Of a DNA stretch of 64,000 bases, positions 982 through 54,007 are shown piece after piece (the stretch's first letter is position 1; every line of letters begins with the position of its first letter). The position numbers and the translations under genes are program-made. The DNA is taken from positions 45,906 to 109,905 of the forward strand of contig CAZVFX010000003.1 of assembly GCA_964626565.1 (NCBI GenBank), given 5' to 3'. Source of the stretch: an uncultured Myxococcales bacterium (GTDB lineage Bacteria > Myxococcota_A > UBA9042 > CAIXZC01). Below the pieces are notes generated by a model. That model saw only the letters and a list, made by a program, of their open reading frames with translations. It was not told the DNA's origin and did not search any database.

Positions 982-2325
982 ATGGGGGAAATGACGATGC
1001 GCGCGAATCAACTGGTCATAGTGTTGCTGGCCGCTGCTTTCCTATGCTCCTGCGGAGGGGCTGGGCGAAGTTTGTGGGGCGAGGGAGATGCGAAGAACCC
1101 TCCCGCGGTGGACCTGGTGGGAGAGGAAGAGACGATAACCGCCGAAGACGGAGCCTGCCTCCCCTCTTGCGAGAACAAGGAGTGCGGAGACGACGGCTGT
1201 GGCGGGCAGTGTGGCGTTTGCGTCATCTGCGGAGAAGAAGAGCCGGACATGTGCGCCCCGGACGGCATCTGCCCGACTGCATTCTGCTGTCCCGACTGCA
1301 CTGACAAGCAGTGCGGGGACGACGGCTGCGGCGGCGCTTGCGGGGTTTGCGGGCCACCGGCCAGTTGCATCGAGAACCACTGCATCTGCGAGCCGGATTG
1401 TGCGGGGAAGCAGTGCGGGTCGGACAACTGCGGTGGCGAGTGTGGGCAATGCCTGCCCGAACAAGAGTGCACCTTCGACGGCTTCTGCGAGTGGGTCGGG
1501 ATCCCCTGCGATTTCGGCGCGTGCGGCGACTGGGGCGATTCGTACTGCGGCGAGTGCCCGTGCCCTGACTGCGACCCGGATCTGACCGAGTGCATCAACG
1601 GCTACTGCGAGCCGGGGGTCGGCCCGAATCAGATGGACTGTGGCGGGATTTTCGATTGCATGGGCGAGTGCTCCCAAAGCGACCCCGGGTGCCAGCAGCA
1701 GTGCATCTCCGAGGCGCCGCCGGGAGCGCAAACGCGTTACCTGGACGTAGTAGAATGCCTGGACAAGGTCGGCTACTACGACTGCTACTACCTCCCCGAG
1801 GACGAGCAGGACCAGTGCTATTGGGAGACCAGCGACCAATGCCAGGACCAGATTGTGCAGTGCTGGCACGGCGACCTTACATGCCTCGAAATGTACCTGT
1901 GCACCATCGAGTGTGAAGACTGGGACTACGGCTGCCAGAACGACTGCATGGGGGAAGGAAACGTGGACGCCCAGTACCTGTGGGACGACCTCATCGACTG
2001 CCTGGGTGAATCGGGATACTGGGAGTGTGCGGAGTGGGACCAGCAGTGTTACGAGGACACCTGGGAGCCGTGCCAGGCGACGTTCCAGGAGTGCACTCAC
2101 GGGGACAATACGTGCCTGGAGGTGCTGGATTGCATCGAGGGATGCGGCGACGACTACTGCTGGTACGAGTGCTATTTTAACGGCGACATATACGCGCAAG
2201 AGGCGTATTCGGAGTTTCTCACCTGCTACTACATGGTGTGCGGTGAGGGAGGCAACCCGGCCTGTTTTGAGAAGGCGATCGAGGGACTTTGTGCTGAAGA
2301 ATACATGATCTGCTCAGCGCCCTGA
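982..2325 (+). CDS. Secreted cysteine-rich lipoprotein with repeated C-x-(G/D)K-x-CG-DDGCGG-x-CG-x-C modules; the start may be ATG 997
   Basis: The N-terminus MRANQLVIVLLAAAFLCSCGG is signal/lipobox-like. At least four CxxKxCGxDGCGGxCGxC repeats are followed by an acidic Cys/Trp/Tyr-rich C-terminal half. Confidence 0.7.
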   Translation: MGEMTMRANQLVIVLLAAAFLCSCGGAGRSLWGEGDAKNPPAVDLVGEEETITAEDGACLPSCENKECGDDGCGGQCGVCVICGEEEPDMCAPDGICPTAFCCPDCTDKQCGDDGCGGACGVCGPPASCIENHCICEPDCAGKQCGSDNCGGECGQCLPEQECTFDGFCEWVGIPCDFGACGDWGDSYCGECPCPDCDPDLTECINGYCEPGVGPNQMDCGGIFDCMGECSQSDPGCQQQCISEAPPGAQTRYLDVVECLDKVGYYDCYYLPEDEQDQCYWETSDQCQDQIVQCWHGDLTCLEMYLCTIECEDWDYGCQNDCMGEGNVDAQYLWDDLIDCLGESGYWECAEWDQQCYEDTWEPCQATFQECTHGDNTCLEVLDCIEGCGDDYCWYECYFNGDIYAQEAYSEFLTCYYMVCGEGGNPACFEKAIEGLCAEEYMICSAP

Positions 2326-2482
2326 CCCCGGTCGTAGGCCCGAGTATTATCGAGCGCTGCTGAACCATGTGGGGGTCCTTCCATCTCCTCCAGTGAGACA
2401 TTGCCAACTGCGAAAGTGGGTGCGTCGGGGCTGTCAGGATGACAGTTCGGATGGGTGATGATCTGACTGTACAACCACCCCC

Positions 2483-2511
2483 TTGATCGCATAGAATCTT
2501 CTCCGTAGAAA
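2483..2511 (+). promoter_or_regulatory. Candidate sigma70 promoter TTGATC-17-TAGAAA upstream of the giant gene 2524
   Basis: Hexamers and spacing read from sequence; the RBS GGAGG lies 6 nt before ATG 2524. Confidence 0.3.
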
Positions 2512-2523
2512 TCGGAGGCACAC

Positions 2524-5500
2524 ATGCGACATGCGGGCACATATCTTCTCGTGATCACATTCCTCTTTTCCTGCTCCACCGGCGGCCAGGCGATCCTGAC
2601 CGATGCGGGGCAGGATGCCGGAATGCCGGACGTGGCGCCGGAACTGCCCGGCGCCGAGGTGCTGTTTGAGGTGACGCCGGAGCAAGTGGACACCGGCTTT
2701 GAAATCGAGCCGGTTGAAATCGTCGAGGTCGACATGGGCACGCCGCCCGGCGGCGCGGGGTGGCCATGCAGTTCGGCCGACGATTGCAACGAGGGTTTCT
2801 GCATCCAGACCTCAGACGGCATGCAGTGCACCATCTCTTGCATCGAGGAGTGTCCATTTGGTTGGGAGTGCCTGCTCTACACTCCCAGTCTCCCCGACCA
2901 GGTGTATCTCTGTATGCCCACTTTTGTAGATGCGTGTAAGCCGTGCACCAACAACAAGGAGTGCTGGACCGACGGCGTCGATGCGGGACAGGCTTGCGTG
3001 GAGTACGGAGCGGGCGGAAACTTCTGCGGGATCTACTGCGGCGACCCCGACGACCCGGACAACGTCGGGCCGGCGTGCCCGGAAGGGTACGTCTGCGAAT
3101 TGGTTATCGATGTCAGCGGTGCGGATCAACTCCAGTGCGTATTGGCGCAAGGCGAGTGCCAGTGCAAACAGTGGTACGTTGATGAGGGTGCCTGGACCGA
3201 GTGTTTCACCGAAAACGAAATGGGTAAATGCTTCGGTGAAAGGGAGTGCCTGGCTGAAGGACTTTCACTCTGCTCCGCCGCAGTACCATCAGCCGAGATA
3301 TGTAACGGAGAGGACGACGATTGCGACGGGGACGTGGACGAGGAGATTCCGGAGGAATCGTGCCTGGTCATATCCCCGTTTGGAGCGTGTGAAGGTGTAG
3401 AAAAATGCGTCAACGGCGAACTGCTGTGCCAGGGGGAAGAGGCCCACGCCGAGACGTGTGACGGCGAAGACAACGACTGCGACGGAGATGTAGATGAGGG
3501 CTTCGAGGACACGGATGAGGACGGCGTCGCTAACTGCATGACCGACGACAAAGACGGCGACGGCGTGGTGGACGGCATGGACAACTGCGATGCGGCCTTC
3601 AATCCGCTGCAGGAAGACTTCGACCTCGATACCGTAGGCGACGCGTGCGACCCGGATGACGACAACGACCTGTCTGCGGACGTTGACGACTGTTCGCCCA
3701 AAGACCCGGAGGCTTACCCCGGGGCCGACGAACTGTGCGATGGAAAGGACAACAACTGCGATTTCACTACCGACGAGGGTTTTTACGACAACGACTCCGA
3801 CGGGGCGAAGGACTGTGTGGACACCGATGATGACAACGACGGTGCCGCGGATGCCGACGACTGTGCTCCCAACGACCCCCTCTCCTTCCCCGGCGCTGAC
3901 GAATTGTGCGACGGCCAGGACAACGACTGCGACGAGGTGATCGACAACGGCTTCCCCGACCTGGACGACGACGGGATCGCTGACTGCATTGACGACGATA
4001 CTGATGGGGACGGAATTGCCGACAGCGCGGACAATTGTGTTGGTGTGAAAAACGAAGGCCAGGAGGATTTTGACCAGGACGGGATTGGGGACCTGTGTGA
4101 TCCCGACGCGGACGGGGATGCCATACCCGACAGCGCGGACAACTGTGTTGGGGTAAAAAACACGTTGCAGGGGGACGTGGATGGGGACGGCCTGGGCGAT
4201 GAGTGCGACGACGACCTGGACGGCGACGGTTTCGACAATGAAGCAGACAATTGCCCTCTGGTTGCCAACGCGGATCAGGCCGACTCGGACCAGGATGGCG
4301 TCGGCGACGCGTGTGAAGACGACACGGACGGCGACGGTACGCCCGATGGCGAGGACTGTGCGCCGTTGAACCCTGCGGTCCATCCCGGAGCCGAGGAGCT
4401 ATGCGACGGATCGGACAACGATTGTAACTTCCTCATTGATGAGGGATATCCGGACAAGGATGCGGACGGGTGGAAGAACTGCATCGATGAGGACGACGAC
4501 GATGACGGCACGCCTGATGGGTTGGACTGCGCTCCCCTGGATGATGAAATCCATCTGCTGGCGGCTGAAAAATGCAACCTGATCGACGACGATTGCGACG
4601 GCCTGGTGGACGAGGAGTTGGGGTCGACCGCGTGCGGCCTGGGCCTGTGCCAGCACACGATCCAGAACTGCCAGGACGGCGTTTGGACAATCTGCAATCC
4701 TTTCGATGGGGTGGAACCGGAGGAATGCGACGGTCTGGACAACGACTGCGACGGACAGCCCGACGAGGACCTCGGCGTCATTTCATGCGGGCTGGGCCAG
4801 TGCACCCATGCGGTGCCTGCGTGCCTGAACGGGCAGTTGAATGACTGTGACCCCATGGCAGGCGCGGCCGCGGAGAAATGCGACGCTATTGACAACGACT
4901 GCGATGGGCCGATTGACGAGGATTTGGGGAGCACGACCTGCGGTCTGGGCGTTTGCCTCCACAGCGTTCAGAACTGCGTGGGAGGGGCCCCGCAGGCTTG
5001 CGACGAAATGGAAGGTTTTGAGCTGGAGAAATGTGACGGTTTGGACAACGACTGTAACGGCGAAGTAGACGACGGCCTGCCCGACGTCACGTGCGGGCTG
5101 GGAGTGTGTGAGCACGCGGAACCCGGCTGCATCGATGGCGAACTGAATCCGTGTGACCCTTTCTTCGGCGCGTCGACGGAGCTTTGCGACCAGTTGGACA
5201 ACGACTGCGACGGGGATGTGGACGTCGCGTGCGGGCAAGCAGGCACAGGCACGTGCATCGGAGACGTGTGCTGCGACATGCCTTGCGCAGGCACGTGTGT
5301 GAGCTGCCTGCAGCCTGACCTGGAAGGGCTGTGCACCGAATATGCCGACGGAGGCGACCCGGACGACGATTGCGGCGGATACCTGTGCAACGGGGCCGCG
5401 GTGGAGGCGCCCGGCTTCAGCGCCTGTCATGTCGCCTGCACCGAGGAAGAAGCGGAAACGCAGTGCAAGGAGGGTTTCCACTGCGACGACGAGGCCTGCG

Positions 5501-6765
5501 TGCCGGATCTGGATTGGGGCGAAGAGTGCGACGAGAACAGTGATTGCGTCAGCGGCTTCTGCCGCCTGAGTTGGGATGGCGAAGCGATGCGCTGCTCCGA
5601 CAACGACGTTGATTGCGTGGCTGCAACGCTGGAAGACATGTTGAGCCCGCCGGGCTACGTGCAATGCGGGCTGAGCATCTTTGGGGAAGGGTACCGGGTG
5701 TGCACCGACGGGGAGTGGATTCCACTGCCCAGCGAGCCGCCGGTCGCGTGCGGGGCCATGGTATGCAACGAAGGGTGCGGCTACATCACCGAAGAAGACA
5801 ACGCCTGTGTTACCGGCGCGGAACTTGGGGTCAGTGCGGGCTGCGAGTTTGAAGATGGGGTGGGCGAGACCACCTGCGTCGACTGCGGGGAGGTCACCGC
5901 CGTGCTCGGCGGCTGTGCCGAAGGTGTGGACGCGTGCAGCGTGCTATGCGGAGCCGACTGCATCGCGGGAGAGACCAACGACTCCGAGGCAAACGTGTGC
6001 TGGGAGGATGAAAACGGCGACAGTTGGAACCGCATAGATTCGTGTGCCGAAGCGGCCCAGGATTGTTTCTGGGACGATGACGGGCATGAGAACGACACGG
6101 AGAACGCGTCGTGCGGCGACTTCGATTGCCACGATGCCGGCGAGTGTTGGGAGTCTTGCGCCGGCGACGATGCCAAGTGCAACGAAGGAGCGGTGTGCTT
6201 CAACGACGCCTGCATCAGCAATGAAGGCCTGTTCCCCTGGGAACTCTCGGGCAACCATGTGATGCTCACCAAAACCGACGACACTTACTTCAAGAATCCG
6301 GCGTGCAACGGCAACTGGTTCGGCGCGGACGACGCCACCGTACAGGGGATCCCCATGAAGGTGGGGCCACACACCGCGGGCGGGAACATGGCCGGGCTGG
6401 CGCCCAACCAGGTGCTCCCCGCGCCCAACGGCGCCTGGACCATCAACAACGTGCATATCATCTTCCCGGGCGGGCGCTGTAGCGGCCAGCCGTTGCGGGC
6501 GGACTTCACCTACACCGACGACTCCACCAGTCAGACGGGCACCGCATCCATACCCCACGACTGCAGCCACGGCGGCTCCTCGTCCGGCTCCAATTTCTCG
6601 GTCAGCTACCAGGGCGCATACGGCGGCCCGTGCTGCGATGCGTGGTGGTACGGGAAGTTCACCAATCCCGAGCCGGGGAAACAGGTGAAATCGCTGTCGG
6701 TGTACTACTCCGACGGTTGCGGGGGCAGCTACCTGGGGCAGATCTGGGCGGTGACCATCGACTGA
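2524..6765 (+). CDS. Giant (1413 aa) cysteine-rich secreted lipoprotein G1
   Basis: N-terminus MRHAGTYLLVITFLFSCSTG is signal/lipobox-like. The conserved domain (GWPCSSADDCNEGFCIQTSDGMQCTISCIEECPFGW...) is nearly identical to that of ORF 24867..28808. Calcium-binding TSP3 repeats appear about 3530-4400 (DKDGDGVVDGMDNCD...DxDxDGxGDxCDxDDDND). Roughly 50-aa CGLGxC...CDGxDNDCDGxxDE (MopE-like) repeats occur about 4600-5250. The C-terminal 160 aa are of unknown fold. Confidence 0.8.
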   Translation: MRHAGTYLLVITFLFSCSTGGQAILTDAGQDAGMPDVAPELPGAEVLFEVTPEQVDTGFEIEPVEIVEVDMGTPPGGAGWPCSSADDCNEGFCIQTSDGMQCTISCIEECPFGWECLLYTPSLPDQVYLCMPTFVDACKPCTNNKECWTDGVDAGQACVEYGAGGNFCGIYCGDPDDPDNVGPACPEGYVCELVIDVSGADQLQCVLAQGECQCKQWYVDEGAWTECFTENEMGKCFGERECLAEGLSLCSAAVPSAEICNGEDDDCDGDVDEEIPEESCLVISPFGACEGVEKCVNGELLCQGEEAHAETCDGEDNDCDGDVDEGFEDTDEDGVANCMTDDKDGDGVVDGMDNCDAAFNPLQEDFDLDTVGDACDPDDDNDLSADVDDCSPKDPEAYPGADELCDGKDNNCDFTTDEGFYDNDSDGAKDCVDTDDDNDGAADADDCAPNDPLSFPGADELCDGQDNDCDEVIDNGFPDLDDDGIADCIDDDTDGDGIADSADNCVGVKNEGQEDFDQDGIGDLCDPDADGDAIPDSADNCVGVKNTLQGDVDGDGLGDECDDDLDGDGFDNEADNCPLVANADQADSDQDGVGDACEDDTDGDGTPDGEDCAPLNPAVHPGAEELCDGSDNDCNFLIDEGYPDKDADGWKNCIDEDDDDDGTPDGLDCAPLDDEIHLLAAEKCNLIDDDCDGLVDEELGSTACGLGLCQHTIQNCQDGVWTICNPFDGVEPEECDGLDNDCDGQPDEDLGVISCGLGQCTHAVPACLNGQLNDCDPMAGAAAEKCDAIDNDCDGPIDEDLGSTTCGLGVCLHSVQNCVGGAPQACDEMEGFELEKCDGLDNDCNGEVDDGLPDVTCGLGVCEHAEPGCIDGELNPCDPFFGASTELCDQLDNDCDGDVDVACGQAGTGTCIGDVCCDMPCAGTCVSCLQPDLEGLCTEYADGGDPDDDCGGYLCNGAAVEAPGFSACHVACTEEEAETQCKEGFHCDDEACVPDLDWGEECDENSDCVSGFCRLSWDGEAMRCSDNDVDCVAATLEDMLSPPGYVQCGLSIFGEGYRVCTDGEWIPLPSEPPVACGAMVCNEGCGYITEEDNACVTGAELGVSAGCEFEDGVGETTCVDCGEVTAVLGGCAEGVDACSVLCGADCIAGETNDSEANVCWEDENGDSWNRIDSCAEAAQDCFWDDDGHENDTENASCGDFDCHDAGECWESCAGDDAKCNEGAVCFNDACISNEGLFPWELSGNHVMLTKTDDTYFKNPACNGNWFGADDATVQGIPMKVGPHTAGGNMAGLAPNQVLPAPNGAWTINNVHIIFPGGRCSGQPLRADFTYTDDSTSQTGTASIPHDCSHGGSSSGSNFSVSYQGAYGGPCCDAWWYGKFTNPEPGKQVKSLSVYYSDGCGGSYLGQIWAVTID

Positions 6766-6941: not shown

Positions 6942-7817
6942 ATGGCTGAGTACTTTACCACGAAGGAAATCGCGCGGTACCTTCGTATCAACGAGAAGAA
7001 GGTCTATGCGTTGGTGGCAGAGGGAAAGCTGCCCGCGGCGCGGATATCGGGAAAATGGCTGTTCCCAAAGCACGTAATCGATGAGTGGATCGAGAAGAAC
7101 ACCCGCATTCCCGGCCAGGGCCTCATGGGCGCCATTCTGGATGAAATGGTGGTCGTGCAGGGAAGTGACGACTGGCTCTTTTCCAAGGCCGCCCGGAACT
7201 TCCAGGAGCGCAGCGAAGTGCCGGTGGTTTCTTCCCGGGTCGGCAGCCTGGCGGGCATCGCGGCTATCGATCAAGGCAAGGCGCACCTGGCGGGCTGCCA
7301 TGTGAAGAATGAGGCGGTGAAGAAGTCGATCGTGGGCGGCCAGGGGTGTTACCTGGTGAACCTGTTCTCCCGGGAGCAGGCGCTGATCTTCGACCGTGAG
7401 AAACACCCCGACGTGCGCGGCCTGGCGAGCCTGGTGGATCAGGGAATCGCGTTCGCCGGCCGCCAGCCGCTGTCCGGCACCCAGCGGCTCACGGAGCACC
7501 TGCTGGGGGAGGAAGGCGTGGACCCGGCTCACTTGACCGTCGCGGGCGAGTACTCATCCCACCTCGAGTTGGCTCTGGCGATCCGTACCGGCAAGGCCGG
7601 TGCAGGGGTAGGAACGGTCCAGGCTGCACAAATGGCCGGCCTGGATTTTGTGCCTCTGGCCACGGAGGCGTACAAGCTGGCGATCCCGCTGGCTTTTGCA
7701 TCCCATCCACAGATGGTTCGGTTGCTGGACTTTCTACTCTCAGAGTTGAAGGCTGCCGCCGGCGAAAACCCGGCGGGCTATGATCTTGCGTCGTTGGGTA
7801 AGATGGAGACCGTCTAG
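6942..7817 (+). CDS. Transcriptional regulator with an excisionase-type HTH fused to a periplasmic-binding-protein-like domain (probable oxyanion Mo/W-responsive regulator)
   Basis: MAEYFTTKEIARYLRINEKKVYALVAEGKLPAARISGKWLFPKHVIDEW is a HTH_17-like N-terminus. The C-terminal ~200 aa are PBP_like. It sits next to a molybdoenzyme operon. Confidence 0.65.
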   Translation: MAEYFTTKEIARYLRINEKKVYALVAEGKLPAARISGKWLFPKHVIDEWIEKNTRIPGQGLMGAILDEMVVVQGSDDWLFSKAARNFQERSEVPVVSSRVGSLAGIAAIDQGKAHLAGCHVKNEAVKKSIVGGQGCYLVNLFSREQALIFDREKHPDVRGLASLVDQGIAFAGRQPLSGTQRLTEHLLGEEGVDPAHLTVAGEYSSHLELALAIRTGKAGAGVGTVQAAQMAGLDFVPLATEAYKLAIPLAFASHPQMVRLLDFLLSELKAAAGENPAGYDLASLGKMETV

Positions 7818-9001
7818 GAACAGCCCCCGCCCTTTTTGATTTTGCGTTTCACTTTGGGGCGGGGTGCGGAAGGAGCCACCTTGACCGCGGCGCCGGTGAA
7901 GTAGGAGTGGAGCGCCGAAACCAGCGCCTTATCCGTTTCAGCAAGGGCAGCCAGCAACTCACTGGCCGGAGCCTTGTCTACGATCAACGACGCCCAGGCG
8001 TCGTATCCGCCGGATAGCCTGGCCAGCTTGCCGGTGTACCGGTTGAGCCCCTGAGGGAGGGCGCCGGCATCGACTACGCCCTGGTCATAGACCAGCAGGG
8101 TCCTGTCGGAAGGCAGAAGCTCGAGTTCGCCCTCGATATCTGAGTAGCAGAGGGCAAAGGGAAGCCTGTCCTTGCCCTCGCTGCACGCCGGTTCTTCGCG
8201 CAGGTCGACCACGTACAGCGAGCGGGGTTCTTCCACCAGAATACGGGCCGCGTCCAGCACTTTCATCTCGGCTACCGGGACCGGCTCTTCGACGAGCTGT
8301 TCGGGAAGGACCGCGGTTACAACGATGGCTGCGGCGCCGGCGGCAGACAGCCCGGCCAGGAGGCCTGCCGTATTGCGACTCCATGTCGCTTCCTTCTCCT
8401 TCTTCATCATTCGGGAGAAGATGGCCTCGACTTTTTCAGCGCCGAAGAACATGAACGCAGCAGCCACAGCTACGACAGTGGCCAGCAGCGGCAGGCCGAT
8501 ACCCAGCCACTCATGCAGGGTAAATACGCCCAACGCGGACGAGGTGTGGAAATCTGCGATGAGGGGATACATTTCGCCGAAGATGACCGAACCGACGATG
8601 ACGCCGGCTACGGTCAGCAGGCCGTCCCACTTGCCCGACGCCATGGCCACGATGGAGGTGCCGGGGCAGTAGCCCGAGACAATAAACCCCGCACCCAGCA
8701 GCAGCCCGCCGGTGAGGTGGGGCCAGATAAACGTTTCGGGAATGAACAGGCCGCCCATGTTGAGCATCCCCGTCGCGGAGAAAAAGGCCAACCCCACAGC
8801 CGCGGTGACGATGCCGGAGAACATCACTTTGAACACGCGCATGTTGTGCAGATAGAACTGTGCGGCCAGAACGCGGGCGTTGCCGAAACCGTTGCGCTCC
8901 AGGGCAAAGCCGAACAGGAAGCCCACTATGATGGCGGGAACGAAGCTGGCTTCAAAGGGAACTGTCTCGCCGGAGAATATGGGGAACAAAGTCATTGCCA
9001 T
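7814..9001 (-). CDS. YeeE/YedE-family sulfur (thiosulfate/selenium) transporter with a C-terminal rhodanese-like domain; the real start is MAMTLFP (about 9001), and the track N-extension to 9289 is probably spurious
   Basis: Transmembrane YeeE/YedE motifs (GxxxG-rich helices, CPGTSIV) are followed by YVVDLREEPACSEGKDRLPFALCYSD (rhodanese-like). ATG 8999-9001 overlaps the stop of the upstream gene. Confidence 0.65.
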   Translation of the reverse strand: MAMTLFPIFSGETVPFEASFVPAIIVGFLFGFALERNGFGNARVLAAQFYLHNMRVFKVMFSGIVTAAVGLAFFSATGMLNMGGLFIPETFIWPHLTGGLLLGAGFIVSGYCPGTSIVAMASGKWDGLLTVAGVIVGSVIFGEMYPLIADFHTSSALGVFTLHEWLGIGLPLLATVVAVAAAFMFFGAEKVEAIFSRMMKKEKEATWSRNTAGLLAGLSAAGAAAIVVTAVLPEQLVEEPVPVAEMKVLDAARILVEEPRSLYVVDLREEPACSEGKDRLPFALCYSDIEGELELLPSDRTLLVYDQGVVDAGALPQGLNRYTGKLARLSGGYDAWASLIVDKAPASELLAALAETDKALVSALHSYFTGAAVKVAPSAPRPKVKRKIKKGGGCS

Positions 9002-9564: not shown

Positions 9565-9567
9565 GGT

Positions 9568-10569: not shown

Positions 10570-10580
10570 GATAATCCCTC

Positions 10581-11126: not shown

Positions 11127-11129
11127 GAT

Positions 11130-13650: not shown

Positions 13651-13651
13651 A

Positions 13652-17295: not shown

Positions 17296-17370
17296 CCTCC
17301 CCGGGCTTCCGGCCGGGGCTAGTGGCTAGCGTGCCCTGCGGGGCCTGGTTCGGAGGTTGGAGATCGAGAG
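17296..17370 (-). promoter_or_regulatory. Copy 1 of a conserved ~75-nt GC-rich structured intergenic element, about 25 nt after the giant-gene stop and about 170 nt before the next gene start
   Basis: About 85% identical to 23279..23356. It contains a hairpin GCCC-GCA-GGGC (GCCCC-CGT-GGGGC in copy 2, a compensatory change) and a CCCCGG...CCGGGG stem. Confidence 0.5.
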
Positions 17371-40138: not shown

Positions 40139-40141
40139 TGC

Positions 40142-41753: not shown

Positions 41754-41893
41754 GGCAATTCTCCATTGGTAGTTGCTGCGTTCTATCTGTTTGGCAGCGT
41801 TGTCGATTTTCAAGAAACTCGGCCATTTGTCGGTGGTTCCGGCGGTTCCTTACAGTCTTTTCTTGTGTGCTGAAATTCGCGTGGCCGAGGTCG

Positions 41894-47949: not shown

Positions 47950-50900
47950 ATGCGCCAGTTGATCGCAGTCATTTTTACGCTTCTCGCCGGGGCCGCATGT
48001 GCCGGATCGGGTGGGGTAGCGCTCCTCAACGACCAGGGCGGCGGTGACCTCGACGCGGCAGTCATGCCGGATGCCGGACTACCCGACCGGGGAGGGCCGG
48101 CGGACGTTCCGTTCGATCCGGGCGGCCCCGAGGACAGCAAGCAGGAATTCGTCTCCTGCATGGCAGGCACCGGGTGTTTCGGTGAACCGTGCGACGACGG
48201 CGGGGACTGCCTGTCCGGATTTTGCGTAGATCACATGGGCAACCAGGTGTGCTCTGAAGCGTGCGTGGAGGAGTGCCCCGCAGGCTGGTCGTGCCAGCAG
48301 GTTTCGGGGCTGGGCCCTGACCTGACTTTCGTTTGCGTTTCCGATTTCCGGGTGCTCTGCCGACCTTGCACCGACAACGACGACTGCGCCAGCACCTCGG
48401 GGCAGGAGGACCTGTGCGTCACATACGGCGCTTCCGGACGTTTCTGCGGCGCAGCCTGCGGTGAAGAGAAACAGTGCCCGGAAGGGTACAACTGTGAGGA
48501 CGTAGGGGCCGCAGGAGAATCGCTGTTCCAATGTGTCGCCGACGCGGAAGAGTGCGAGTGTTCAGACCTGGCGGTGGAACTGGCGGAGCACACGGTTTGC
48601 GAGGTGTCCAACGACTTCGGAACCTGCGAAGGTATCAGGAAGTGCACCTCCGGCGGCCTCACCGCGTGCGACGCGGACGAACCTGCGGCTGAGCAGTGCA
48701 ACGGTTCAGACGACAATTGCGATGGCGAAACCGACGAGGCAACGTGCGACGACGACAACGATTGCACCGAGGACCTGTGCGAAGGCGTCGATGGGTGTGC
48801 TTTCGAACCGCTGGAAGGAACCACCTGCGACGACCTCAACCCCTGCACCGTCACCGACCACTGCGTGAGCGGCGATTGCGTGGGGACAGCAGTGCAGTGC
48901 GACGACGGCAACCCCTGCACCGATGACCTGTGCGACGGTCAGTCGGGATGTATTTTTGAGGCCAACAGCGATATCTGTGATGACGGGGACCCCTGCACCA
49001 TTGGAGACCTGTGCGTGGAAGGAGAATGCCAGGGCACCGCGGTGGAGTGCGACTGCGTGGCCGATACCGATTGTGCAGCCTTTGAAGATGGCGACCTCTG
49101 CAACGGGACACTCTATTGCGACAAGTCGGGAGTGCAATTCAAGTGCGCCGTCGCCCCGGACACGATTGTCGTCTGCCCGCCGCCCGCAGGACCCGACGCA
49201 GCCTGTCTGCAAGCATCGTGCGCGCCGGTCACCGGCGCCTGTTCACTGACCCCGGCCAACGAAGGGCAAGTGTGCAGCGACGGCGACCAGTGCACCTATG
49301 GTGAAAGCTGCTTCCAGGGGACCTGCAGTGGGGGCGCCGAGCTGAACTGCAATGACGCGAACCAGTGCACCGCGGACTCCTGCAACCCCGACTCGGGCTG
49401 CCAGCACTCGCCGGTGAACGGAGGGTGCAACGACGGCGATTCGTGCACCGGCCCGGACGCCTGTTTTGACGGGCAGTGCGCGGCCGGTCCGCCCCTTAAT
49501 TGCGATGACAACAACCAGTGCACCGCGGACAATTGCGACTCCGCGCTCGGGTGCACCCATCTATACCTGGATCAGGGGTGCGACGACGGCAACCAGTGCA
49601 CCATGGGCGACCATTGCGAAGGAGGCCTGTGCCTGCCTTCCTCCATGCTCGGATGCGACGACGGCAACCCGTGCACGGATGATTCGTGCAACTCCCAAAC
49701 CGGCTGCCTTCACACCCACAACAACGCAGCCTGCAGCGACGGCAACCAGTGCTCCTCCAACGACTACTGCCAGGACGGAACGTGCCAGCCCGGCGAAGAG
49801 TTGGATTGTGAAGACAACAACCAGTGCACAGAGGACGTATGCAACCCACTCCTCGGATGCCTGCACACCAACAACGCCGGCGTTTGCGACGACGTGGACC
49901 CGTGCACGCTCCAGGACAAATGCTCCGGCGGGGTGTGCGTCGGCACGACGCCGAAGGACTGCAACGACGACAACCCGTGTACGGATGACAAATGCATCCC
50001 CATGGCCGGCTGCTCCTACGACAACAACGACAACCCGTGTGATGACGGAAACTCCTGCACGACGGGAGACAAATGTGCGGCGGGAAGCTGCCAGCCCGGG
50101 GAACCTTCCTCCTGTGAAGACGGCAACGTCTGCACCGACGATGCTTGCGTCCAGGGGCAGGGCTGTGTTCACGAACCCAACGACGCCGGGTGCGACGACC
50201 TCAACGAGTGCACCACCGGAGATACTTGCAAGCAAGGTCAGTGCAGCGGCACCGGGTCGCTGGAATGCGACGACGGCAAGCCGTGCACCAAGGACATTTG
50301 CCTCCCCGGCGGCGGCTGCCTTCATGAGGACGCTGAAGCCCCGTGCTCGGACGGAGACCCGTGCACCGTGGGCGACGTGTGCGAGGCGGGAGAATGCGTG
50401 TCCGGTCCCGCACCCGACTGCGACGACGGCAACCCCTGCACCGACGACTCGTGCGGAGCCGACGGGGCCTGCGACCACGCCCCCAACCAGGCTGCTTGCG
50501 ACGATGGAAATCCTTGCACAATTGGTGACCACTGCGACGACGGCTGGTGCGCACCGGAAGGGCCGCTGGATTGCAACGACGACAACCTGTGCACCACCGA
50601 TAACTGCGACCCGTTGCAGGGATGCATCTACACGTTGAACTCCAACCCCTGTAATGACAACGACGCTTGCACCATAAACGACCTGTGCGGAGCGGGAAGC
50701 TGCGGCGGGGGCGGTTCATTGAACTGTGAGGACGCCAATCCGTGCACCGTAGACAGTTGCGACCCCGCGGCCGGCTGCATCCACTTGTGGGCCGACGCTC
50801 CGTGCGACGATTTCAACCCCTGCACCGAAGGGGATCATTGCGACGAGGGAGTGTGCAAGCCGGGTTCGACGGTAGGATGCGATGACCAGGATGTCTGCAC

Positions 50901-51708
50901 AGACGATTCGTGCGACGTGCAGGCCGGGTGCGTGCACACCCACAACCAGGCGCCGTGCAACGACCTCAATGAATGCACCACCGGCGACGTTTGCGCCGCC
51001 GGTGTGTGCGCCGGACCCGATGGCCTCAACTGTGACGACGGCAAAATCTGCACCGACGATTCGTGCGTTCCCGATAGCGGCTGCGTGCACCTGAACAACT
51101 CCGCTCCGTGTAGCGACAACAACAGTTGCACTGAAGACGATAGCTGCTCGGGGGGAAGCTGCCAGCCGGGAAGCCTGATCAACTGCAACGACGGAGACGA
51201 GTGCACAACCGACAGTTGCGACCCGGTCCAGGGCTGCATTCACTCCAACAACAACAACTGCTGCTCTCCCAGCGGCAATCGTGTTGCTTTCAACTCCATT
51301 TCGCAAGACTCCGCAGGCGGCTGCTGGAACGGCAACCCCTGTGGCACCGACTCCTACTCGTGGAACGGCAACGGCCAGGCGTTTTCGGGCTTTGGCCAGT
51401 CCATTACGTGCAGCGGCGCGAGCGGCTGCGTTGCACAGGTAGGAATCACCACATACTCCGGCGGCAATTCGGTATGCCAGGGCAAATGGGACGTGTACTG
51501 CAACAACGAAAAGCAGTGCACCATCACGACTCTCGGCACAAGCTGCGCGGGGAGCGCCATGGGCAACGGTTGCAAGTGTAATTTCCCCAAAGCCAAGAGC
51601 TGCTCGTCCATCAAGCTGGTATCGGTCCAGGATGGCGACGGAACGGGGAGTTGCTGCGGAGGCTCACCTCAACCCGATTCGATGATCACTGCAGTAAGCG
51701 CCTGGTAG
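47950..51708 (+). CDS. Giant (about 1250 aa) secreted lipoprotein G5 with more than 25 tandem CDDGNPCTxDxC repeats; the start is the internal M (MRQLIAVIFTLLAGAACAGSG)
   Basis: Conserved N-terminal Cys module (GEPCDDGGDCLSGFCVDHMGNQVCSEACVEECPAGW...) plus a MopE-like CNGSDDNCDGETDEA. A long array of ~38-aa repeats follows (CxDGNxCTxDxCxxxxGCxHxxNxAxCxDGxxCTxGDxCxxGxCxxG). The Cys/Gly/Ser-rich C-terminal ~150 aa are unknown. Confidence 0.8.
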   Translation: MRQLIAVIFTLLAGAACAGSGGVALLNDQGGGDLDAAVMPDAGLPDRGGPADVPFDPGGPEDSKQEFVSCMAGTGCFGEPCDDGGDCLSGFCVDHMGNQVCSEACVEECPAGWSCQQVSGLGPDLTFVCVSDFRVLCRPCTDNDDCASTSGQEDLCVTYGASGRFCGAACGEEKQCPEGYNCEDVGAAGESLFQCVADAEECECSDLAVELAEHTVCEVSNDFGTCEGIRKCTSGGLTACDADEPAAEQCNGSDDNCDGETDEATCDDDNDCTEDLCEGVDGCAFEPLEGTTCDDLNPCTVTDHCVSGDCVGTAVQCDDGNPCTDDLCDGQSGCIFEANSDICDDGDPCTIGDLCVEGECQGTAVECDCVADTDCAAFEDGDLCNGTLYCDKSGVQFKCAVAPDTIVVCPPPAGPDAACLQASCAPVTGACSLTPANEGQVCSDGDQCTYGESCFQGTCSGGAELNCNDANQCTADSCNPDSGCQHSPVNGGCNDGDSCTGPDACFDGQCAAGPPLNCDDNNQCTADNCDSALGCTHLYLDQGCDDGNQCTMGDHCEGGLCLPSSMLGCDDGNPCTDDSCNSQTGCLHTHNNAACSDGNQCSSNDYCQDGTCQPGEELDCEDNNQCTEDVCNPLLGCLHTNNAGVCDDVDPCTLQDKCSGGVCVGTTPKDCNDDNPCTDDKCIPMAGCSYDNNDNPCDDGNSCTTGDKCAAGSCQPGEPSSCEDGNVCTDDACVQGQGCVHEPNDAGCDDLNECTTGDTCKQGQCSGTGSLECDDGKPCTKDICLPGGGCLHEDAEAPCSDGDPCTVGDVCEAGECVSGPAPDCDDGNPCTDDSCGADGACDHAPNQAACDDGNPCTIGDHCDDGWCAPEGPLDCNDDNLCTTDNCDPLQGCIYTLNSNPCNDNDACTINDLCGAGSCGGGGSLNCEDANPCTVDSCDPAAGCIHLWADAPCDDFNPCTEGDHCDEGVCKPGSTVGCDDQDVCTDDSCDVQAGCVHTHNQAPCNDLNECTTGDVCAAGVCAGPDGLNCDDGKICTDDSCVPDSGCVHLNNSAPCSDNNSCTEDDSCSGGSCQPGSLINCNDGDECTTDSCDPVQGCIHSNNNNCCSPSGNRVAFNSISQDSAGGCWNGNPCGTDSYSWNGNGQAFSGFGQSITCSGASGCVAQVGITTYSGGNSVCQGKWDVYCNNEKQCTITTLGTSCAGSAMGNGCKCNFPKAKSCSSIKLVSVQDGDGTGSCCGGSPQPDSMITAVSAW

Positions 51709-51721
51709 GGAGGCGAAACCG

Positions 51722-54007
51722 ATGATGACTCGAGCTTGTCTGGCCGTTTTTCTACTGCTTCCGCTGTCAGCCTGCACCGGCAGCGGCACCGACGACTGCG
51801 TCGAGATTTGCGATGGCAAATGCGGCGCGTATGAAGGGTGCGACTGCGAAGGCTGCGGGGATGGCTTTGCATGCGAAGACAACGTGTGCATGGAGGCGTG
51901 CATCCCGGTTTGCGACGGCTTCGAATGTGGGGACGACGGTTGCGGCGGAAGCTGCGGCTCCTGCCCGCTCGCAGCGCCCGCGTGCAACGCGGGCTCGTGC
52001 TGCACGCCTGACTGCGCGGACGCGGAGTGCGGAGACGACGGTTGCGGCGGCGTGTGTGGAGTGTGTTCCGAGGATTTGCCGGAGTGCGTTGAAGGCCTTT
52101 GCTCCGCGGTCTGCGTCCCAGATTGCGAAGACAAAGAGTGCGGGGATGACGGTTGCGGCAACAGTTGCGGCGACTGCCCCACCGCCGCACCGGTATGTAA
52201 CGAAGGCCTTTGCGAACCTGATTGTGTCGGTAATTGCGAGGGCCTCGAATGTGGGGACGACGGCTGCGGTAAAAGCTGCGGCGGCTGTCCGGACAATCAC
52301 GTGTGCCTGGCCGAAGGGGTCTGCCTGTGCCAGCCCGATTGTGCCGGAAAATGCGGCGAAGACGGGTGCGGGGGCGAGTGCGGCGAATGCCCCGGGCTGC
52401 AGGAAGATTGTGTCGACGGCTTGTGCGTCTGCCAGCCCGCTTGCGACAGCAAGAACTGTGGACCTGACGGTTGCGGCGAAAGCTGCGGTGAGTGCCCCGA
52501 AAATCACGACTGCCTGGCCGACGGCACCTGCCTGTGCGTCCCCGACTGCTCCGGTTCCGATTGCGGCAGCGACGGCTGCGGCGGCTCTTGCGGCAGTTGC
52601 GGCTGTGGAGAGTACTGCATCGACGGCTTATGCGTCTTCACCGCGTGCGACGGCAAGGAATGCGGGCCGGATACGTGCGGGGGAAACTGCGGCGTCTGTC
52701 CGCCCGGCGCCGCGTGCGTCCAGGGCCTCTGCCCGCCGGAAGGAACCGGGTGCGAGGATTTCAATGAGACGCCCTGGGACGGCTGTACGGACGGGCAGGT
52801 CACGGAGTTCCAGGCCAACGAGTATACCCAAGGGGATCAGAAAGCGCCTGACATCGCCATGCTGGCCGACGGTCGGTTCCTGGTCGTCTGGCAAAGCGCG
52901 CTGCAGGACGGCAACAGCGAGGGTGTATTTGCCCGCTTCTTCTTCCCGGGCCTCGAGCCCGACGCCGGCGACTTCCAGGTGAACAGCGAAAGCTACGGAA
53001 CCCAGAAAGACCCCCGGGCTGCCGCAGTGGGAGAAGACCGATTCGTAGTGGTGTGGGTCAGCTCGGGCCAGGACGGATTCATGGATGGGGTCTTCGGCCA
53101 GTTGTTCGACCTGGACGGGTTCCCCGATGGCGACGAGTTCCAGGTGAACACTTATACAACCGCCAGTCAGATTGCCCCCGCGGTGGCCGGATTTCCCGGC
53201 GGCTTTGTGGTTGTCTGGGAGAGCCCCGGGCAGGACGGGTCCGATACCGGAATCATGGGCCAGCGCTTCGCACCCGATGGCGAGAAGTGGGGCACCGAAT
53301 TTCAGGTGAATACCTACTTCCTGGTCGCGCAGAAGGCGCCCGCAATAGACACCTTTGACGACGGCAGGTTTGTGGTGGCATGGAGCAGTTGGTCCCAGGA
53401 CGGCTCCGATTGGGGGGTCTTCGGCCAGCGCTTCATGGCGAACGGCGACATGGAAGGGCAGGAGTTTCAGGTGAATACCCACACCGGGGAGCACCAGTAC
53501 GCGGCCAGCGTTGCCGTGACTGGAGACTCCACTTTCGCCATGTCGTGGCAGAGCCTGGACCAGGACGGCTCCGACTACGGGATCTACGGACAGCGCTTCA
53601 ACCTGTCCGTGGGCAAGTCAGGCTCGGAATTCAAGCTCAATGAGCATATCGACCAGGTGCAGGAGGCCCCGTCCCTGGCCGCGGCTCCCACCGGGGACTT
53701 TGCCGCCGCGTGGCAAAGCTGCGCCACCCCCGGCGCGGTGGACCCGCCTCAGGACGGCGACGGCTGCGGAATCGTCGCCCGCCGGTACCAGGCGAACGGC
53801 TCTGCTGTGGGCCAGGAGTTCGTGGTCAACGTCTCCCCCACCGGGGAACAGACGGGTGCAGCCACCGCGATGTCTGCGGCCGGCGATTTTGCCGTTACCT
53901 GGGCAAGCTGCCCGCCCCCGACCCAGCCCAACTCGGCCCAGGATGGAAGCGGATGCGGCATTTTCGTGCAGCGTATCAATCCCGATGGAGAGCGTCTCTA
54001 TCGCTAG
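51722..54007 (+). CDS. Secreted lipoprotein (761 aa): nine CxGxxCGxDGCGGxCGxC modules followed by eight ~50-aa beta-propeller-like repeats (EFQVNTYT..Q..P.VA...GGFVVVW.S..QDGS..GVFGQRF)
   Basis: Signal MMTRACLAVFLLLPLSACTG. RBS GGAGG 8 nt upstream, 13 nt after the G5 stop (operon). Repeats read directly from the translation. Confidence 0.8.
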   Translation: MMTRACLAVFLLLPLSACTGSGTDDCVEICDGKCGAYEGCDCEGCGDGFACEDNVCMEACIPVCDGFECGDDGCGGSCGSCPLAAPACNAGSCCTPDCADAECGDDGCGGVCGVCSEDLPECVEGLCSAVCVPDCEDKECGDDGCGNSCGDCPTAAPVCNEGLCEPDCVGNCEGLECGDDGCGKSCGGCPDNHVCLAEGVCLCQPDCAGKCGEDGCGGECGECPGLQEDCVDGLCVCQPACDSKNCGPDGCGESCGECPENHDCLADGTCLCVPDCSGSDCGSDGCGGSCGSCGCGEYCIDGLCVFTACDGKECGPDTCGGNCGVCPPGAACVQGLCPPEGTGCEDFNETPWDGCTDGQVTEFQANEYTQGDQKAPDIAMLADGRFLVVWQSALQDGNSEGVFARFFFPGLEPDAGDFQVNSESYGTQKDPRAAAVGEDRFVVVWVSSGQDGFMDGVFGQLFDLDGFPDGDEFQVNTYTTASQIAPAVAGFPGGFVVVWESPGQDGSDTGIMGQRFAPDGEKWGTEFQVNTYFLVAQKAPAIDTFDDGRFVVAWSSWSQDGSDWGVFGQRFMANGDMEGQEFQVNTHTGEHQYAASVAVTGDSTFAMSWQSLDQDGSDYGIYGQRFNLSVGKSGSEFKLNEHIDQVQEAPSLAAAPTGDFAAAWQSCATPGAVDPPQDGDGCGIVARRYQANGSAVGQEFVVNVSPTGEQTGAATAMSAAGDFAVTWASCPPPTQPNSAQDGSGCGIFVQRINPDGERLYR

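Follow-up and report, generated by a model that had tools for sequence, protein, structure and literature searches.

In Myxococcus xanthus, TraA combines a variable domain, a cysteine-rich repeat stalk, and a sorting tag (PMC13184517). Myxobacteria also have the SitA proteins, polymorphic lipoprotein toxins in which the N-terminal part is conserved and the C-terminal part varies, encoded in several copies per genome (PMC13184517). The DNA stretch analysed here, referred to as the window, comprises 64,000 nucleotides from an uncultured Myxococcota population. Between positions 982 and 54007, eleven neighbouring ORFs encode very Cys-rich, lipid-anchored secreted proteins. All eleven are present where an initial annotation had placed them, with two starts refined: we prefer 17396–23206 (ATG) for the second giant and 15962–17128 for one small gene. 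Cysteine accounts for 7.9–15.2% of residues in these ORFs versus 1.76% across the 27 other ORFs of the window, of which only a ferredoxin and an Lcl_C ORF are also Cys-rich. The concentration is unusual for this window, as had been proposed; in the lineage, however, clustering recurs, and the family is large. Ten of the eleven N-termini fit the lipobox rule, the exception being G17396 with an atypical LTHC. The last 90 residues of the cluster proteins contain neither a C-terminal membrane anchor nor a sorting tag. A Pfam search left most of the protein mass without any family match. The five giants are as follows.

2524–6765, forward strand: giant lipoprotein G2524, 1413 aa; full-length homologue P0131, 53% identity
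17396–23206, reverse strand: giant G17396, 1936 aa, 14.2% Cys
24867–28682, reverse strand: giant lipoprotein G24867, 1271 aa
34532–40138, forward strand: giant mosaic lipoprotein G34532, 1868 aa
47950–51708, forward strand: giant lipoprotein G47950, 1252 aa, 13.8% Cys; full-length homologue in L014, 49% identity

All five giants open with the same module of ~190 residues (N-module), which has 25–28 Cys per copy and is closed in every case by the motif C[ND]GxD[DN][DN]CDGxxDE. The all-versus-all comparison aligned the five copies significantly (composition-corrected pairwise BLASTP E values of 8e-16 to 2e-49), and 24 Cys are invariant in the alignment. The module matched no Pfam or NCBIfam model, and the PDB returned neither a sequence nor a fold match. 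AlphaFold2 nonetheless gave a confident model of the G24867 copy (pLDDT 91.5, pTM 0.81), which is rich in β-hairpins. Judged by sequence, the N-module is an undescribed domain. Its copies are located as follows.

2749–3348, forward strand: N-module of G2524, aa 76–275, from the alignment
22340–22873, reverse strand: N-module of G17396, aa 112–289, the most divergent copy
27864–28442, reverse strand: N-module of G24867, aa 81–273, the AlphaFold2 query
34745–35299, forward strand: N-module of G34532, aa 72–256, from the alignment
48172–48744, forward strand: N-module of G47950, aa 75–265, from the alignment

Downstream of the module the giants diverge as first described, and the cluster has the makeup of a modular secreted, lipid-anchored Cys-rich family with a constant N-terminal module and differing C-terminal arrays. 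In G2524, the lipobox, a 58-aa acidic linker, and the N-module are followed by TSP3 and 51-aa MopE repeats, a Cys-rich middle part, and a 190-aa C-terminal domain, the latter two of no known family. G24867 has a similar repeat region, with TSP3 and 12 MopE motifs after the N-module, and ends in a fibrinogen-like GGGWT head. The two giants are 58% identical across 912 aa. TSP_3 scores 66 bits in G2524 and 65 bits in G24867 (cutoff 25), and the MopE motif (PF11617), present in 10–12 copies, scores 61 and 116 bits, well above threshold. The MopE-like motif had been assigned to all five giants; the sequence motif is indeed in each, but Pfam MopE exceeds its threshold only in these two. G17396 has the atypical signal, a 111-aa acidic linker, the N-module, and ~11 tandem Cys-rich repeats. 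The period of these repeats is 128–136 aa rather than the 105 aa first given, and the only Pfam hit was DUF7107, below threshold. In G47950, the N-module is followed by ~28 Dicty_CTDC-type half-units (191 bits, 1.6e-57) and a 150-aa C-terminal domain of no known family; the repeat, initially put at 38 aa, is a unit of 25/26 aa (51-aa double unit). G34532 is a mosaic in which the N-module precedes a CTDC-like segment, CGDGxC units, a TSP3/MopE stretch, CGxDGCGGxCGxC units, and two propeller-like regions, with no Pfam match. It looks like a joining of the module with S32835-like and S51722-like segments. The eukaryote-matrix-like parts noted earlier are present in the arrays as TSP3, the fibrinogen-like head, and Dicty_CTDC. 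TSP_3, MopE, Dicty_CTDC, and GGGWT_bact are domains with adhesive or Ca2+-binding precedent.

The C-terminal head of G24867 was inspected individually.

24870–25511, reverse strand: fibrinogen-related/intelectin-like C-terminal head of G24867, aa ~1058–1271, from Pfam, NCBIfam, and PDB matches

The head scores 74.3 bits with NCBIfam GGGWT_bact and 30.3 bits with Pfam Fibrinogen_C, the latter covering profile positions 5–51 of 221. Its best PDB sequence matches are intelectin-1 (3e-7), tachylectin-5A, fibrinogen, and ficolins. The likeness to known FReDs extends only over the initial ~50–55 of ~215 residues, and the rest is Gly/Trp-rich and hypervariable among relatives. The AlphaFold2 model of the head failed, with a pLDDT of 47 and poor quality past residue 55. 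Of the C-terminal domains that can be recognised in relatives, the GGGWT head, with its hypervariable middle region, is the most frequent.

The other six members are smaller, and sequence comparison confirmed that they share sub-modules with the giants.

982–2325, forward strand: small Cys-rich lipoprotein A982, 447 aa, 14.7% Cys, 198 nt 5' of G2524
14828–15937, reverse strand: small Cys-rich lipoprotein S14828, 369 aa
15962–17128, reverse strand: small Cys-rich lipoprotein S15962, 388 aa
23357–24841, reverse strand: small Cys-rich lipoprotein S23357, 494 aa, with Dicty_CTDC-type and CGDGxC...CPxDC units
32835–34469, forward strand: small Cys-rich lipoprotein S32835, 544 aa, TTG start, 62 nt 5' of G34532
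51722–54007, forward strand: Cys-rich lipoprotein S51722, 761 aa, beginning 13 nt past G47950

A982, which matched nothing in Pfam or NCBIfam, contains three CGxDGCGGxCGxC units and a Cys-rich C-terminal half of no known family. S14828 and S15962 are paralogues (39% identity across 352 aa), and the latter has ~20 full-length orthologues in other metagenomes at 45–58% identity, of which the named ones are all hypothetical proteins. S23357 shares 48% identity with S32835 and also with aa 259–560 of G34532. S32835 is built of Dicty_CTDC-type and CGDGxC units; one gene caller favoured an antisense ORF at this locus, but we favour the forward strand because of the homology to S23357. S51722 has eight CGxDGCGGxCGxC units and propeller-like repeats homologous to aa 1207–1783 of G34532. 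Five of the Cys-rich genes form a co-directional run on the reverse strand from 28682 down to 14828, with G24867 being the first. G34532 is adjoined by a thioester-domain protein and by a twelfth Cys-rich ORF that had been overlooked.

40142–40684, forward strand: Lcl_C (DUF1566) ORF, 180 aa, 6.7% Cys, without signal peptide

This ORF is in frame with G34532, from which it is separated only by a TAG and one more codon, and is possibly a C-terminal domain severed from that giant.

At E<=1e-30, 1,631 representatives of 50%-identity clusters match the module. By homology, the module is not rare, but defines a family of this bacterial group that is large and uncharacterised. About 110 of the 150 best relatives have the full module at residues ~65–300, and all ~60 genome loci of relatives belong to MAGs of uncultured Myxococcota or 'Deltaproteobacteria'. 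The relatives share the lipobox, acidic linker, and module layout. A strict lipobox test was passed by 80 of 105, and most of the 12 inspected among the 25 failures still have a signal peptide with a Cys behind it. At position +2, G or S predominates, and the linker, with a median length of 60 aa, has a high content of D, G, A, and P. MopE was found in 42, TSP_3 in 15, and Fibrinogen_C in 5 of 44 relatives; several database relatives carry the name 'MopE-related'. In relatives, module profile positions ~50–194 form tandem repeats that alternate with 51-aa MopE units, as would be expected of a rod-building unit. Relatives often occur in clusters of two to three genes or beside other Cys-rich genes. 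Full-length homologues in other MAGs preserve the architectures of G2524, G24867, and G47950. The best DNA identity between paralogues in the window is 67%, and these paralogues are, by their divergence, old. Variants from other samples are 99.9–100% identical, save for a copy-number difference of one 51-aa repeat. The idea of rapid shuffling is not supported, given the low paralogue identity, the near-identical variants, and the recurrence of the three architectures.

We favour, with a probability of about 0.5, the reading that the eleven proteins are surface-anchored adhesin or lectin stalk lipoproteins stabilised by disulfides and Ca2+. They would be placed in the outer membrane or at the cell surface, although a periplasm-facing position would look no different in the sequence. 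A giant would begin with its N-terminal lipid anchor, followed by an acidic disordered linker of ~55–110 residues and a disulfide-knotted base module of ~190 residues, the presumed first copy of the Cys-rich unit repeated many times in some relatives. A long rod of small repeats (MopE-type CDGxDNDCDG, TSP3, Dicty_CTDC, CGDGxC, and CGxDGCGGxCGxC), stabilised by disulfides and probably also by Ca2+, would then serve as a rigid stalk holding a binding head off the cell. The distal C-terminal domain would vary by paralogue, being a fibrinogen/intelectin-like lectin head or a propeller-like or uncharacterised globular domain. As the stalks would display distinct heads, we propose that each paralogue binds a different ligand, with glycans, particles, prey, and sibling cells as candidates. 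The small neighbouring lipoproteins, made of the same bricks, may belong to this surface layer too, either as shorter members or as partners. The sequence data establish the architecture, the paralogy, the domain identities, and the conservation across many MAGs, whereas exposure at the surface, stabilisation by disulfides and Ca2+, and the adhesive or lectin function are inferred.

The adhesin reading is closest to one in which the proteins are self-directed and build an extracellular matrix or hold kin cells together in a myxobacterium that is multicellular or aggregates, by analogy with the M. xanthus surface proteins TraA and MtsC and with Dictyostelium CTDC matrix proteins. This alternative, which departs from the adhesin reading only in the ligand, is possible but rather unlikely. 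The Dicty_CTDC repeats, the many paralogues in co-directional, co-expressed-looking runs, the partial match of the TSP3 region to the cohesion protein MtsC, and the TraA precedent of a Cys-rich repeat stalk under a variable domain (PMC13184517) are consistent with it, while the population variants lack variable-domain polymorphism, the MtsC score is far under the cutoff, and a MYXO-CTERM tag is missing. Quite improbable is a role in extracellular metal handling, in which Cu, Ca, or other metals would be bound or buffered by the many MopE-type motifs, the acidic TSP3 repeats, and the cysteines, which number in the hundreds. Linkers and TSP3 repeats alike are strongly acidic, and PF11617, found in nearly all of the 44 relatives, is annotated as a 'putative metal-binding motif'. 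A PsrABC-like operon and Sulf_transp genes are interspersed among the lipoprotein genes, and metal handling could be tied to these molybdopterin/polysulfide-reductase-like and sulfur-transport functions; however, these neighbours are not conserved alongside the family in other MAGs. Methylococcus MopE binds copper, but at a site that is not part of the repeated motif. The invariant Cys positions and the confident compact model argue for structural disulfides rather than free thiol ligands, and Ca2+ binding by TSP3-/LDLa-like acidic motifs is structural, which fits the stalk.

Least probable, and already disfavoured, is the initial analogy with polymorphic toxins or effectors. The lipoprotein signal, the C-termini that vary behind a constant N-terminus, the precedent of SitA in Myxococcota (PMC13184517), and a PemK toxin gene directly upstream of the cluster fit such a system, and a C-terminal Endonuclease_1 domain in 1 of 44 relatives suggests that some members may deliver enzymes instead of binding ligands. 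Pfam and NCBIfam nevertheless revealed no toxin domain in any of the eleven proteins, even when the C-terminal pieces were searched at E<=1, and the variable parts are chiefly repeats, not compact enzymatic domains. What lies downstream of cluster members is not small immunity-like ORFs but housekeeping genes or genes for further Cys-rich lipoproteins with a signal. Secretion or exchange machinery is absent nearby, and the ~60 related loci have no conserved partner or secretion-system gene. With architectures kept across MAGs and nearly identical alleles across samples, the proteins are unlike arms-race cassettes.

Compared with known systems, the cluster proteins resemble TraA and MYXO-CTERM proteins in being myxobacterial and in having a Cys-rich repeat stalk for a variable recognition domain, with a putative surface location here. 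Different from TraA, their polarity is reversed, with an N-terminal lipid anchor and a distal C-terminal head; they have no MYXO-CTERM tag, PA14-like variable domain, or TraB-like partner, and their repeats belong to different sequence families. MtsC (NCBIfam NF047638) matches the TSP3/MopE repeat region of G2524 and G24867 with 109 and 115 bits, far below the 350-bit equivalog cutoff and confined to that region; the window proteins lack MYXO-CTERM, are three times longer, and differ at the N-terminus. The CxGxDxDCDGxxDE motif that closes the module and recurs in G2524 and G24867 is shared with MopE/PF11617 proteins, but PF11617 is a 30-residue motif rather than a family of proteins whose role is known, and the 190-residue module upstream of it lies outside all Pfam and NCBIfam models. 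G24867 has the A-subdomain and YCDM..GGGWT signature of ficolins, intelectins, tachylectin-5A, and the GGGWT domain (NF040941), although with ~50 of 215 head residues aligned its ligand-binding residues are not assignable. TSP3 (acidic, Ca2+-binding-type) and CTDC repeats, well above Pfam thresholds, recall thrombospondin/COMP and Dictyostelium CTDC proteins; the likeness is limited to small repeats, here in a bacterial lipoprotein context, and no other thrombospondin or Dictyostelium domains were found in the cluster proteins. With SitA they share the lipoprotein nature and the division into conserved N-terminal and variable C-terminal parts, but they are far larger and repeat-dominated, and have no toxin domain, adjacent immunity gene, or allele diversity. 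We regard the cluster as a typical example of a large uncharacterised family of the myxobacterial group, rather than a toxin system.

The eleven Cys-rich ORFs listed in the initial annotation are all present in the window. Five encode giants (G) and six encode small proteins (A or S), all predicted lipoproteins named by window coordinate. With starts trimmed to the codon preceding the signal peptide, they are:

982-2325, plus strand: A982, small Cys-rich ORF
2524-6765, plus strand: G2524, giant ORF
14828-15937, minus strand: S14828, small Cys-rich ORF
15962-17128, minus strand: S15962, small Cys-rich ORF
17396-23206, minus strand: G17396, giant ORF
23357-24841, minus strand: S23357, small Cys-rich ORF
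24867-28682, minus strand: G24867, giant ORF
32835-34469, plus strand: S32835, small Cys-rich ORF
34532-40138, plus strand: G34532, giant ORF
47950-51708, plus strand: G47950, giant ORF
51722-54007, plus strand: S51722, Cys-rich ORF

Cysteine accounts for 7.9-15.2% of residues in the eleven proteins, versus 1.76% pooled over 27 other ORFs of the window (GC ~62%). The clustering of Cys-rich genes is real and well above chance. SPII lipoproteins are recognized by an N-terminal signal peptide that closes with a lipobox and its invariant Cys; ten of the eleven proteins match the PS51257-like or L-x-[GAS]-C rule within their first 24 residues. The exception is G17396, which reads LTHC with an atypical His at -1. 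No C-terminal hydrophobic sorting tag was found in the last 90 residues of any of the eleven. The genes form co-directional groups. The first is A982 followed by G2524, the second, on the minus strand, runs through G24867, S23357, G17396, S15962, and S14828 with gaps of 25, 150, 267, and 24 nt, and the third comprises S32835 followed by G34532, and G47950 followed by S51722. Each of the five giants has a small Cys-rich neighbor. About 30 kb of the 53-kb stretch is devoted to one class of disulfide-rich lipoproteins with a putative surface location, and the 10 kb to the left of the window contains no further family member. G34532 is encoded identically on a 156-kb JGI metagenome contig (3300007510|Ga0105013_1000068), which is 100% identical to the window over the 25.6-kb stretch compared, and the ENA scaffold SUTE22-1_SAMN10231914_METAG-scaffold_718 is 99.996% identical to the window.

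The neighboring genes are ordinary chromosomal genes. They encode a PsrABC-like molybdopterin oxidoreductase, sulfur-transport proteins, LysR, TauE, selD, a methyltransferase, the sugar-related GH4, DegT, and PIG-L, Memo, and a nucleotidyl transferase. The PsrABC-like operon (9568-13340, minus strand) consists of the molybdopterin oxidoreductase, a 4Fe-4S subunit, and an NrfD membrane subunit. It is followed by two Sulf_transp genes (7814-9564, minus strand) lying between the lipoprotein groups, and together they suggest sulfur or polysulfide respiration in this myxobacterium. The selD-like gene (AIRS/AIRS_C; 29860-30915, plus strand) truly starts at ATG 29860, the ORF list having only 29959-30915, and contains an in-frame TGA (29911-29913) within SHCAG-U-AAKFGP. 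This site is the Sec/Cys residue position of selenophosphate synthetase, and the organism probably decodes selenocysteine. No SECIS element was detected at the Rfam gathering threshold; the window as a whole gave no Rfam or tRNA hits. Directly upstream of A982, just beyond the left edge of the window, lies a PemK-family toxin gene (9322-9938 of locus L073) preceded by a 90-aa ORF, probably the antitoxin. At the right end, an open frame starting at ~56158 (MSRKKQLF...; within 56128-64000, plus strand) runs off the window. It encodes more than 2,600 aa, helical or TPR-like with 0.4% Cys, and is missing from the ORF list owing to its truncation at the window end; the long minus-strand ORFs 58246-60921, 60946-62127, and 62215-63174 are its antisense shadows.

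Two intergenic copies of a 78-nt element (17296-17372 and 23279-23356, minus-strand sense) share 82% identity and a 27-nt core for which 0 chance matches are expected. One precedes S15962 by ~180 nt and the other precedes G17396 by ~90 nt, and they may be a shared promoter or 5'-UTR element of these genes; no significant RNA fold (z -0.1, +1.0) or Rfam match was found. G34532 adjoins two ORFs. The first (40136-40684, plus strand) encodes an Lcl_C (DUF1566) protein of 180 aa with 6.7% Cys and no signal peptide. It is in frame with G34532, with nothing between them but TAG and a single codon (ctg TAG tgc ATG), and two independent assemblies agree exactly on the sequence. The ORF looks like a domain severed from the C-terminus by a nonsense codon, or a read-through/coupling arrangement. 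Selenocysteine read-through was rejected because the in-frame stop is TAG, not TGA. The second (40698-41813, minus strand), adjoining both G34532 and the Lcl_C ORF, encodes a secreted TED (thioester) protein of 371 aa (E 7e-5; 23.6 bits versus a 22-bit cutoff). Thioester domains are known from covalent adhesins of Gram-positive bacteria.

We then compared the N-termini of the giants. All-against-all BLASTP with composition correction linked them pairwise with E values of 8e-16 to 2e-49; the first 912 residues of G2524 and G24867 have 58% identity, beyond which the two diverge. The five-way alignment delimits a module of ~190 residues with 24 invariant Cys and 25-28 Cys per copy, which ends in C[ND]GxD[DN][DN]CDGxxDE in all five. 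The shared Cys-rich N-terminal module with a CxGxDxDCDGxxDE motif had therefore been described correctly from the outset, bar small corrections. We defined the N-module family (profile A3) by a lipobox, an acidic linker of 35-110 aa, and a ~190-aa module at residues ~65-300 with ~25 conserved Cys and a CxGxDxDCDGxxDE end, an arrangement found in 5/5 giants. The module has no match in Pfam, even at E<=1, and no counterpart in NCBIfam, and a sequence-profile search of the PDB, which bears also on a copper site of the Methylococcus MopE type, was empty. Based on a 42-sequence alignment, AlphaFold2 yielded a confident model (mean pLDDT 91.5, pTM 0.81), in which a run of beta-hairpins is accompanied by two short helices. 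The best Foldseek match of this model in the PDB had an E value of 0.2 and a TM below 0.2. With neither a fold nor a sequence-profile match in the PDB, the module is therefore an undescribed domain, either a new fold or small knottin-/Dickkopf-like disulfide units joined in a fixed assembly.

The module profile was searched against 1.84 billion cluster representatives (50%-identity clusters), giving 8,243 matches at E<=1e-3 and 1,631 at E<=1e-30, and many weaker matches cover the MopE motif alone. The whole module (positions 2-192) occurs in ~110 of the best 150 representatives, invariably at residues ~65-300, in proteins of 440-4,400 aa. A genome scan, with one genome per GTDB species, located it at at least ~60 loci. 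Among the matches listed, all loci are MAGs labeled Myxococcota, Myxococcales, Deltaproteobacteria, or similar, and the closest module (LaPlata_bin-3248) has 56% identity; several MAGs have two or more module loci. The layout is common to at least ~55 MAG loci, where the ORFs round the matches have a lipobox-Cys signal, a linker, the module, and 600-3,100 more residues. A strict lipobox test was passed by 80/105 representatives, and most of the 12 inspected among the 25 failures have a signal followed by Cys. In relatives, the linker spans a median of 60 aa with abundant D, G, A, and P, and +2 is mostly occupied by G or S. Pfam annotation of 44 relatives revealed MopE in 42, TSP_3 in 15, Fibrinogen_C in 5, DUF2341 in 2, and Endonuclease_1, COLFI, DUF4159, and DUF4215 in 1 each. 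S15962 has ~20 full-length orthologues (45-58% identity), every named one of which is hypothetical, and its repeat is also fused to IPT/TIG, Lcl_C, FGE-sulfatase, and other extracellular domains. The cluster is part of a large, unannotated family, restricted to Myxococcota among the matches listed. We found no paper on the N-module family or the source samples, and the cluster proteins are nameless in every source record matched. In other MAGs, at least seven loci have 2-3 module genes per 20 kb, and 17/64 family genes have an adjacent Cys-rich gene, several of CGxDGCGGxCGxC type. Clustering is thus a lineage trait and no peculiarity of the window.

In P0033 and similar relatives, the stretch at profile positions ~50-194 is present 11-12 times, in alternation with 51-aa MopE units, and the first ~50 residues alone are confined to the N-terminal copy. 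The module is not a strictly N-terminal domain; its tandem part points to a rod-building unit whose first copy is best conserved. Outside the window, P0033, P0032, and other relatives reach 3,200-4,400 aa, with 8-12 copies of the ~140-aa C-terminal part of the module in the same alternation.

Beyond the module, the proteins are built of repeats and distal heads. The Pfam gathering thresholds are 25 bits for TSP_3 (PF02412) and 27 bits each for the MopE motif (PF11617) and Dicty_CTDC (PF00526). G2524 scores 66.1 bits for TSP_3 (4 stretches) and 61 bits for MopE, and G24867 scores 64.7 bits (4 stretches) and 115.9 bits, respectively. Dicty_CTDC reaches 191 bits in G47950 (12 stretches), 68.5 bits in S23357, and 44.7 bits in S32835. 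G17396, G34532, A982, S14828, S15962, and S51722 have no Pfam or NCBIfam domain above threshold; the MopE motif of G17396, G34532, and G47950 is visible by eye and in the alignment, below the PF11617 threshold. Omp28_seleno (NCBIfam) was dismissed, as its scores of 16.5-58.1 bits compare with a curated cutoff of 200 bits and its best stretches are each only ~40 residues of Asp-rich or repeat-rich sequence. Two repeat lengths of the initial annotation needed revision: the G17396 repeat is ~128-136 aa (~11 copies) rather than 105 aa, and in G47950 the motif occurs 28 times as a unit of 25/26 aa (51 aa for a double unit) rather than 38 aa. Its view that small proteins and giants share sub-modules agrees with motif counts, the small proteins reusing the CGxDGCGGxCGxC, CGDGxC...CPxDC, and CTDC-type units. 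G34532 reads as a combination of the module with an S32835/S23357-like segment (48% identity) and an S51722-like segment (32%, 646 aa).

The C-terminal 215 residues of G24867 open with a fibrinogen-related A-subdomain and a YCDM..GGGWT signature. Fibrinogen_C (PF00147) scores 30.3 bits at profile positions 5-51 of 221 only, and GGGWT_bact (NF040941) scores 74.3 bits over its full 46-residue model. By sequence, the closest PDB entries are intelectin-1 (3e-7), tachylectin-5A, fibrinogen beta, and ficolins, and the alignments span residues 5-65 of the query only; A, B, and P subdomains together make up a full FReD fold. AF2 modeled this head poorly (pLDDT 47 overall). A GGGWT-type head ends ~15 relatives (such as P0055, P0077, P0079, P0084, P0102, P0117, P0121, P0138, and P0149, and loci L021, L045, and L048) and is the commonest recognizable C-terminal domain of the family. 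Conservation in this head is confined to roughly the first 55 residues and a terminal (F/W)VR; the 100-180 residues in between are hypervariable and cannot be aligned from one relative to another, suggesting that binding surfaces have diversified. Apart from orthologues, no relatives are recognizable for the C-terminal domains of G2524 and G47950. Pfam at E<=1 gave nothing credible for these two domains, the C-terminal domains of A982 and S14828, the G17396 repeat, or the propeller-like regions, and neither the G2524 C-terminus nor the propeller region of S51722 had a sequence match in the PDB.

The family had been viewed as modular and rapidly shuffling, analogous to polymorphic toxins or adhesins. 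Its modularity is borne out, domain shuffling being clear in its history, and the speed is not. By self-BLASTN, the best paralogue DNA match within the window is 67% over 2.3 kb and none exceeds 82%, with no recent duplication or gene conversion. Protein variants from other samples are 99.9-100% identical to those of the window, except a G24867 allele (P0192, on a 29,987-bp ENA contig) that lacks one 51-aa MopE-type repeat (a CGLGxC...CDGxDNDCDG unit; window 26300-26620, aa ~690-790) and matches at 100% elsewhere. For the remaining genes of this contig identity is 99.8-100%, and the missing repeat reflects either real copy-number variation or a collapsed assembly. In a more distant population, housekeeping proteins have 89-93% identity and the G2524 C-terminus 84%, evolving only slightly faster. 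Full-length homologues of the G2524, G24867, and G47950 architectures exist in other MAGs (coverage 0.97-1.0, 49-53% identity); the G17396 repeat array and the G34532 mosaic were found nowhere else in the sample of relatives. The domain shuffling is old.

The anatomy suggests how these proteins could work. A lipid anchor at the N-terminus would be followed by an acidic disordered tether, the conserved disulfide-rich module as a base, long arrays of small Cys-rich and Asp-rich repeats of Ca2+-binding type, and a variable distal domain at the C-terminal end. The parts called ECM-like in the initial annotation are there, namely TSP3, the fibrinogen-like head, and Dicty_CTDC. This anatomy, with its recognizable parts (TSP3, FReD/intelectin-like head, Dicty_CTDC, and the neighboring Lcl_C and thioester-domain proteins), fits cell-surface adhesin or lectin stalk proteins best, and we infer surface exposure, disulfide and Ca2+ stabilization, and ligand binding. 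Rival readings are a metal-handling role and a self-cohesion or matrix role. Toxin delivery, which a constant N-terminus with variable C-termini had brought to mind, is least supported. Pfam/NCBIfam scans of all eleven whole proteins and of C-terminal pieces contained no toxin family, the downstream genes are Cys-rich lipoproteins or housekeeping genes with no small immunity gene, and no secretion-system gene was found near the cluster. When all ORFs of ~70 loci were clustered, no conserved partner gene (transporter, sortase, immunity) emerged, and only the family itself and its antisense shadow ORFs recurred. Nothing in the window analysis points to a toxin, mobile, or defense function.

An extension of the adhesin or lectin stalk reading is that uncultured aquatic Myxococcota could possess a lineage-specific system for surface display in which the module, a new fold, serves both as the universal membrane-proximal base and as a rod unit that can be repeated. 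Hypervariable heads, fibrinogen/intelectin-like or of other kinds, would make the clustered paralogues a diversified lectin-like recognition repertoire for capturing prey or particles, and each giant/small pair would be a two-component complex. We put this combined reading at roughly 15%, an unlikely one as a whole. If true, bacteria would have an equivalent of the matrix recognition that FReD and thrombospondin proteins provide in animals. Lakes, oceans, and sediments commonly harbor uncultured Myxococcota, whose way of life (predation, aggregation, particle attachment) is, to our knowledge, largely obscure. Defining the module would annotate many "hypothetical" giant proteins at once, and the lipid anchor with the constant base offers a handle for asking what the cells bind.

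Compared with the SitA, CDI, and Rhs toxin systems, the cluster lacks a recognizable C-terminal toxin domain, an adjacent immunity gene, and allele or cassette diversity (99.9-100% identity). The closest characterized analogues in the phylum are TraA and MtsC, and the cluster proteins belong to neither family. TraA is described as having cysteine-rich repeats that bear a variable domain, and a MYXO-CTERM tag (PMC13184517). Such tags combine a Cys-containing tripeptide at the C-terminus with a transmembrane segment and a basic tail. The cluster proteins have the opposite polarity and no such tag in the last 90 residues of 11/11 proteins. Against the MtsC equivalog NF047638, scores were 109 and 115 bits versus the required >=350 bits, again without the tag. 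The cluster is a modular adhesin-like family, and as such no new kind of system; it belongs to the already-known type of modular Cys-rich surface proteins. The domain that defines it is undescribed, with no structural neighbor in the PDB.
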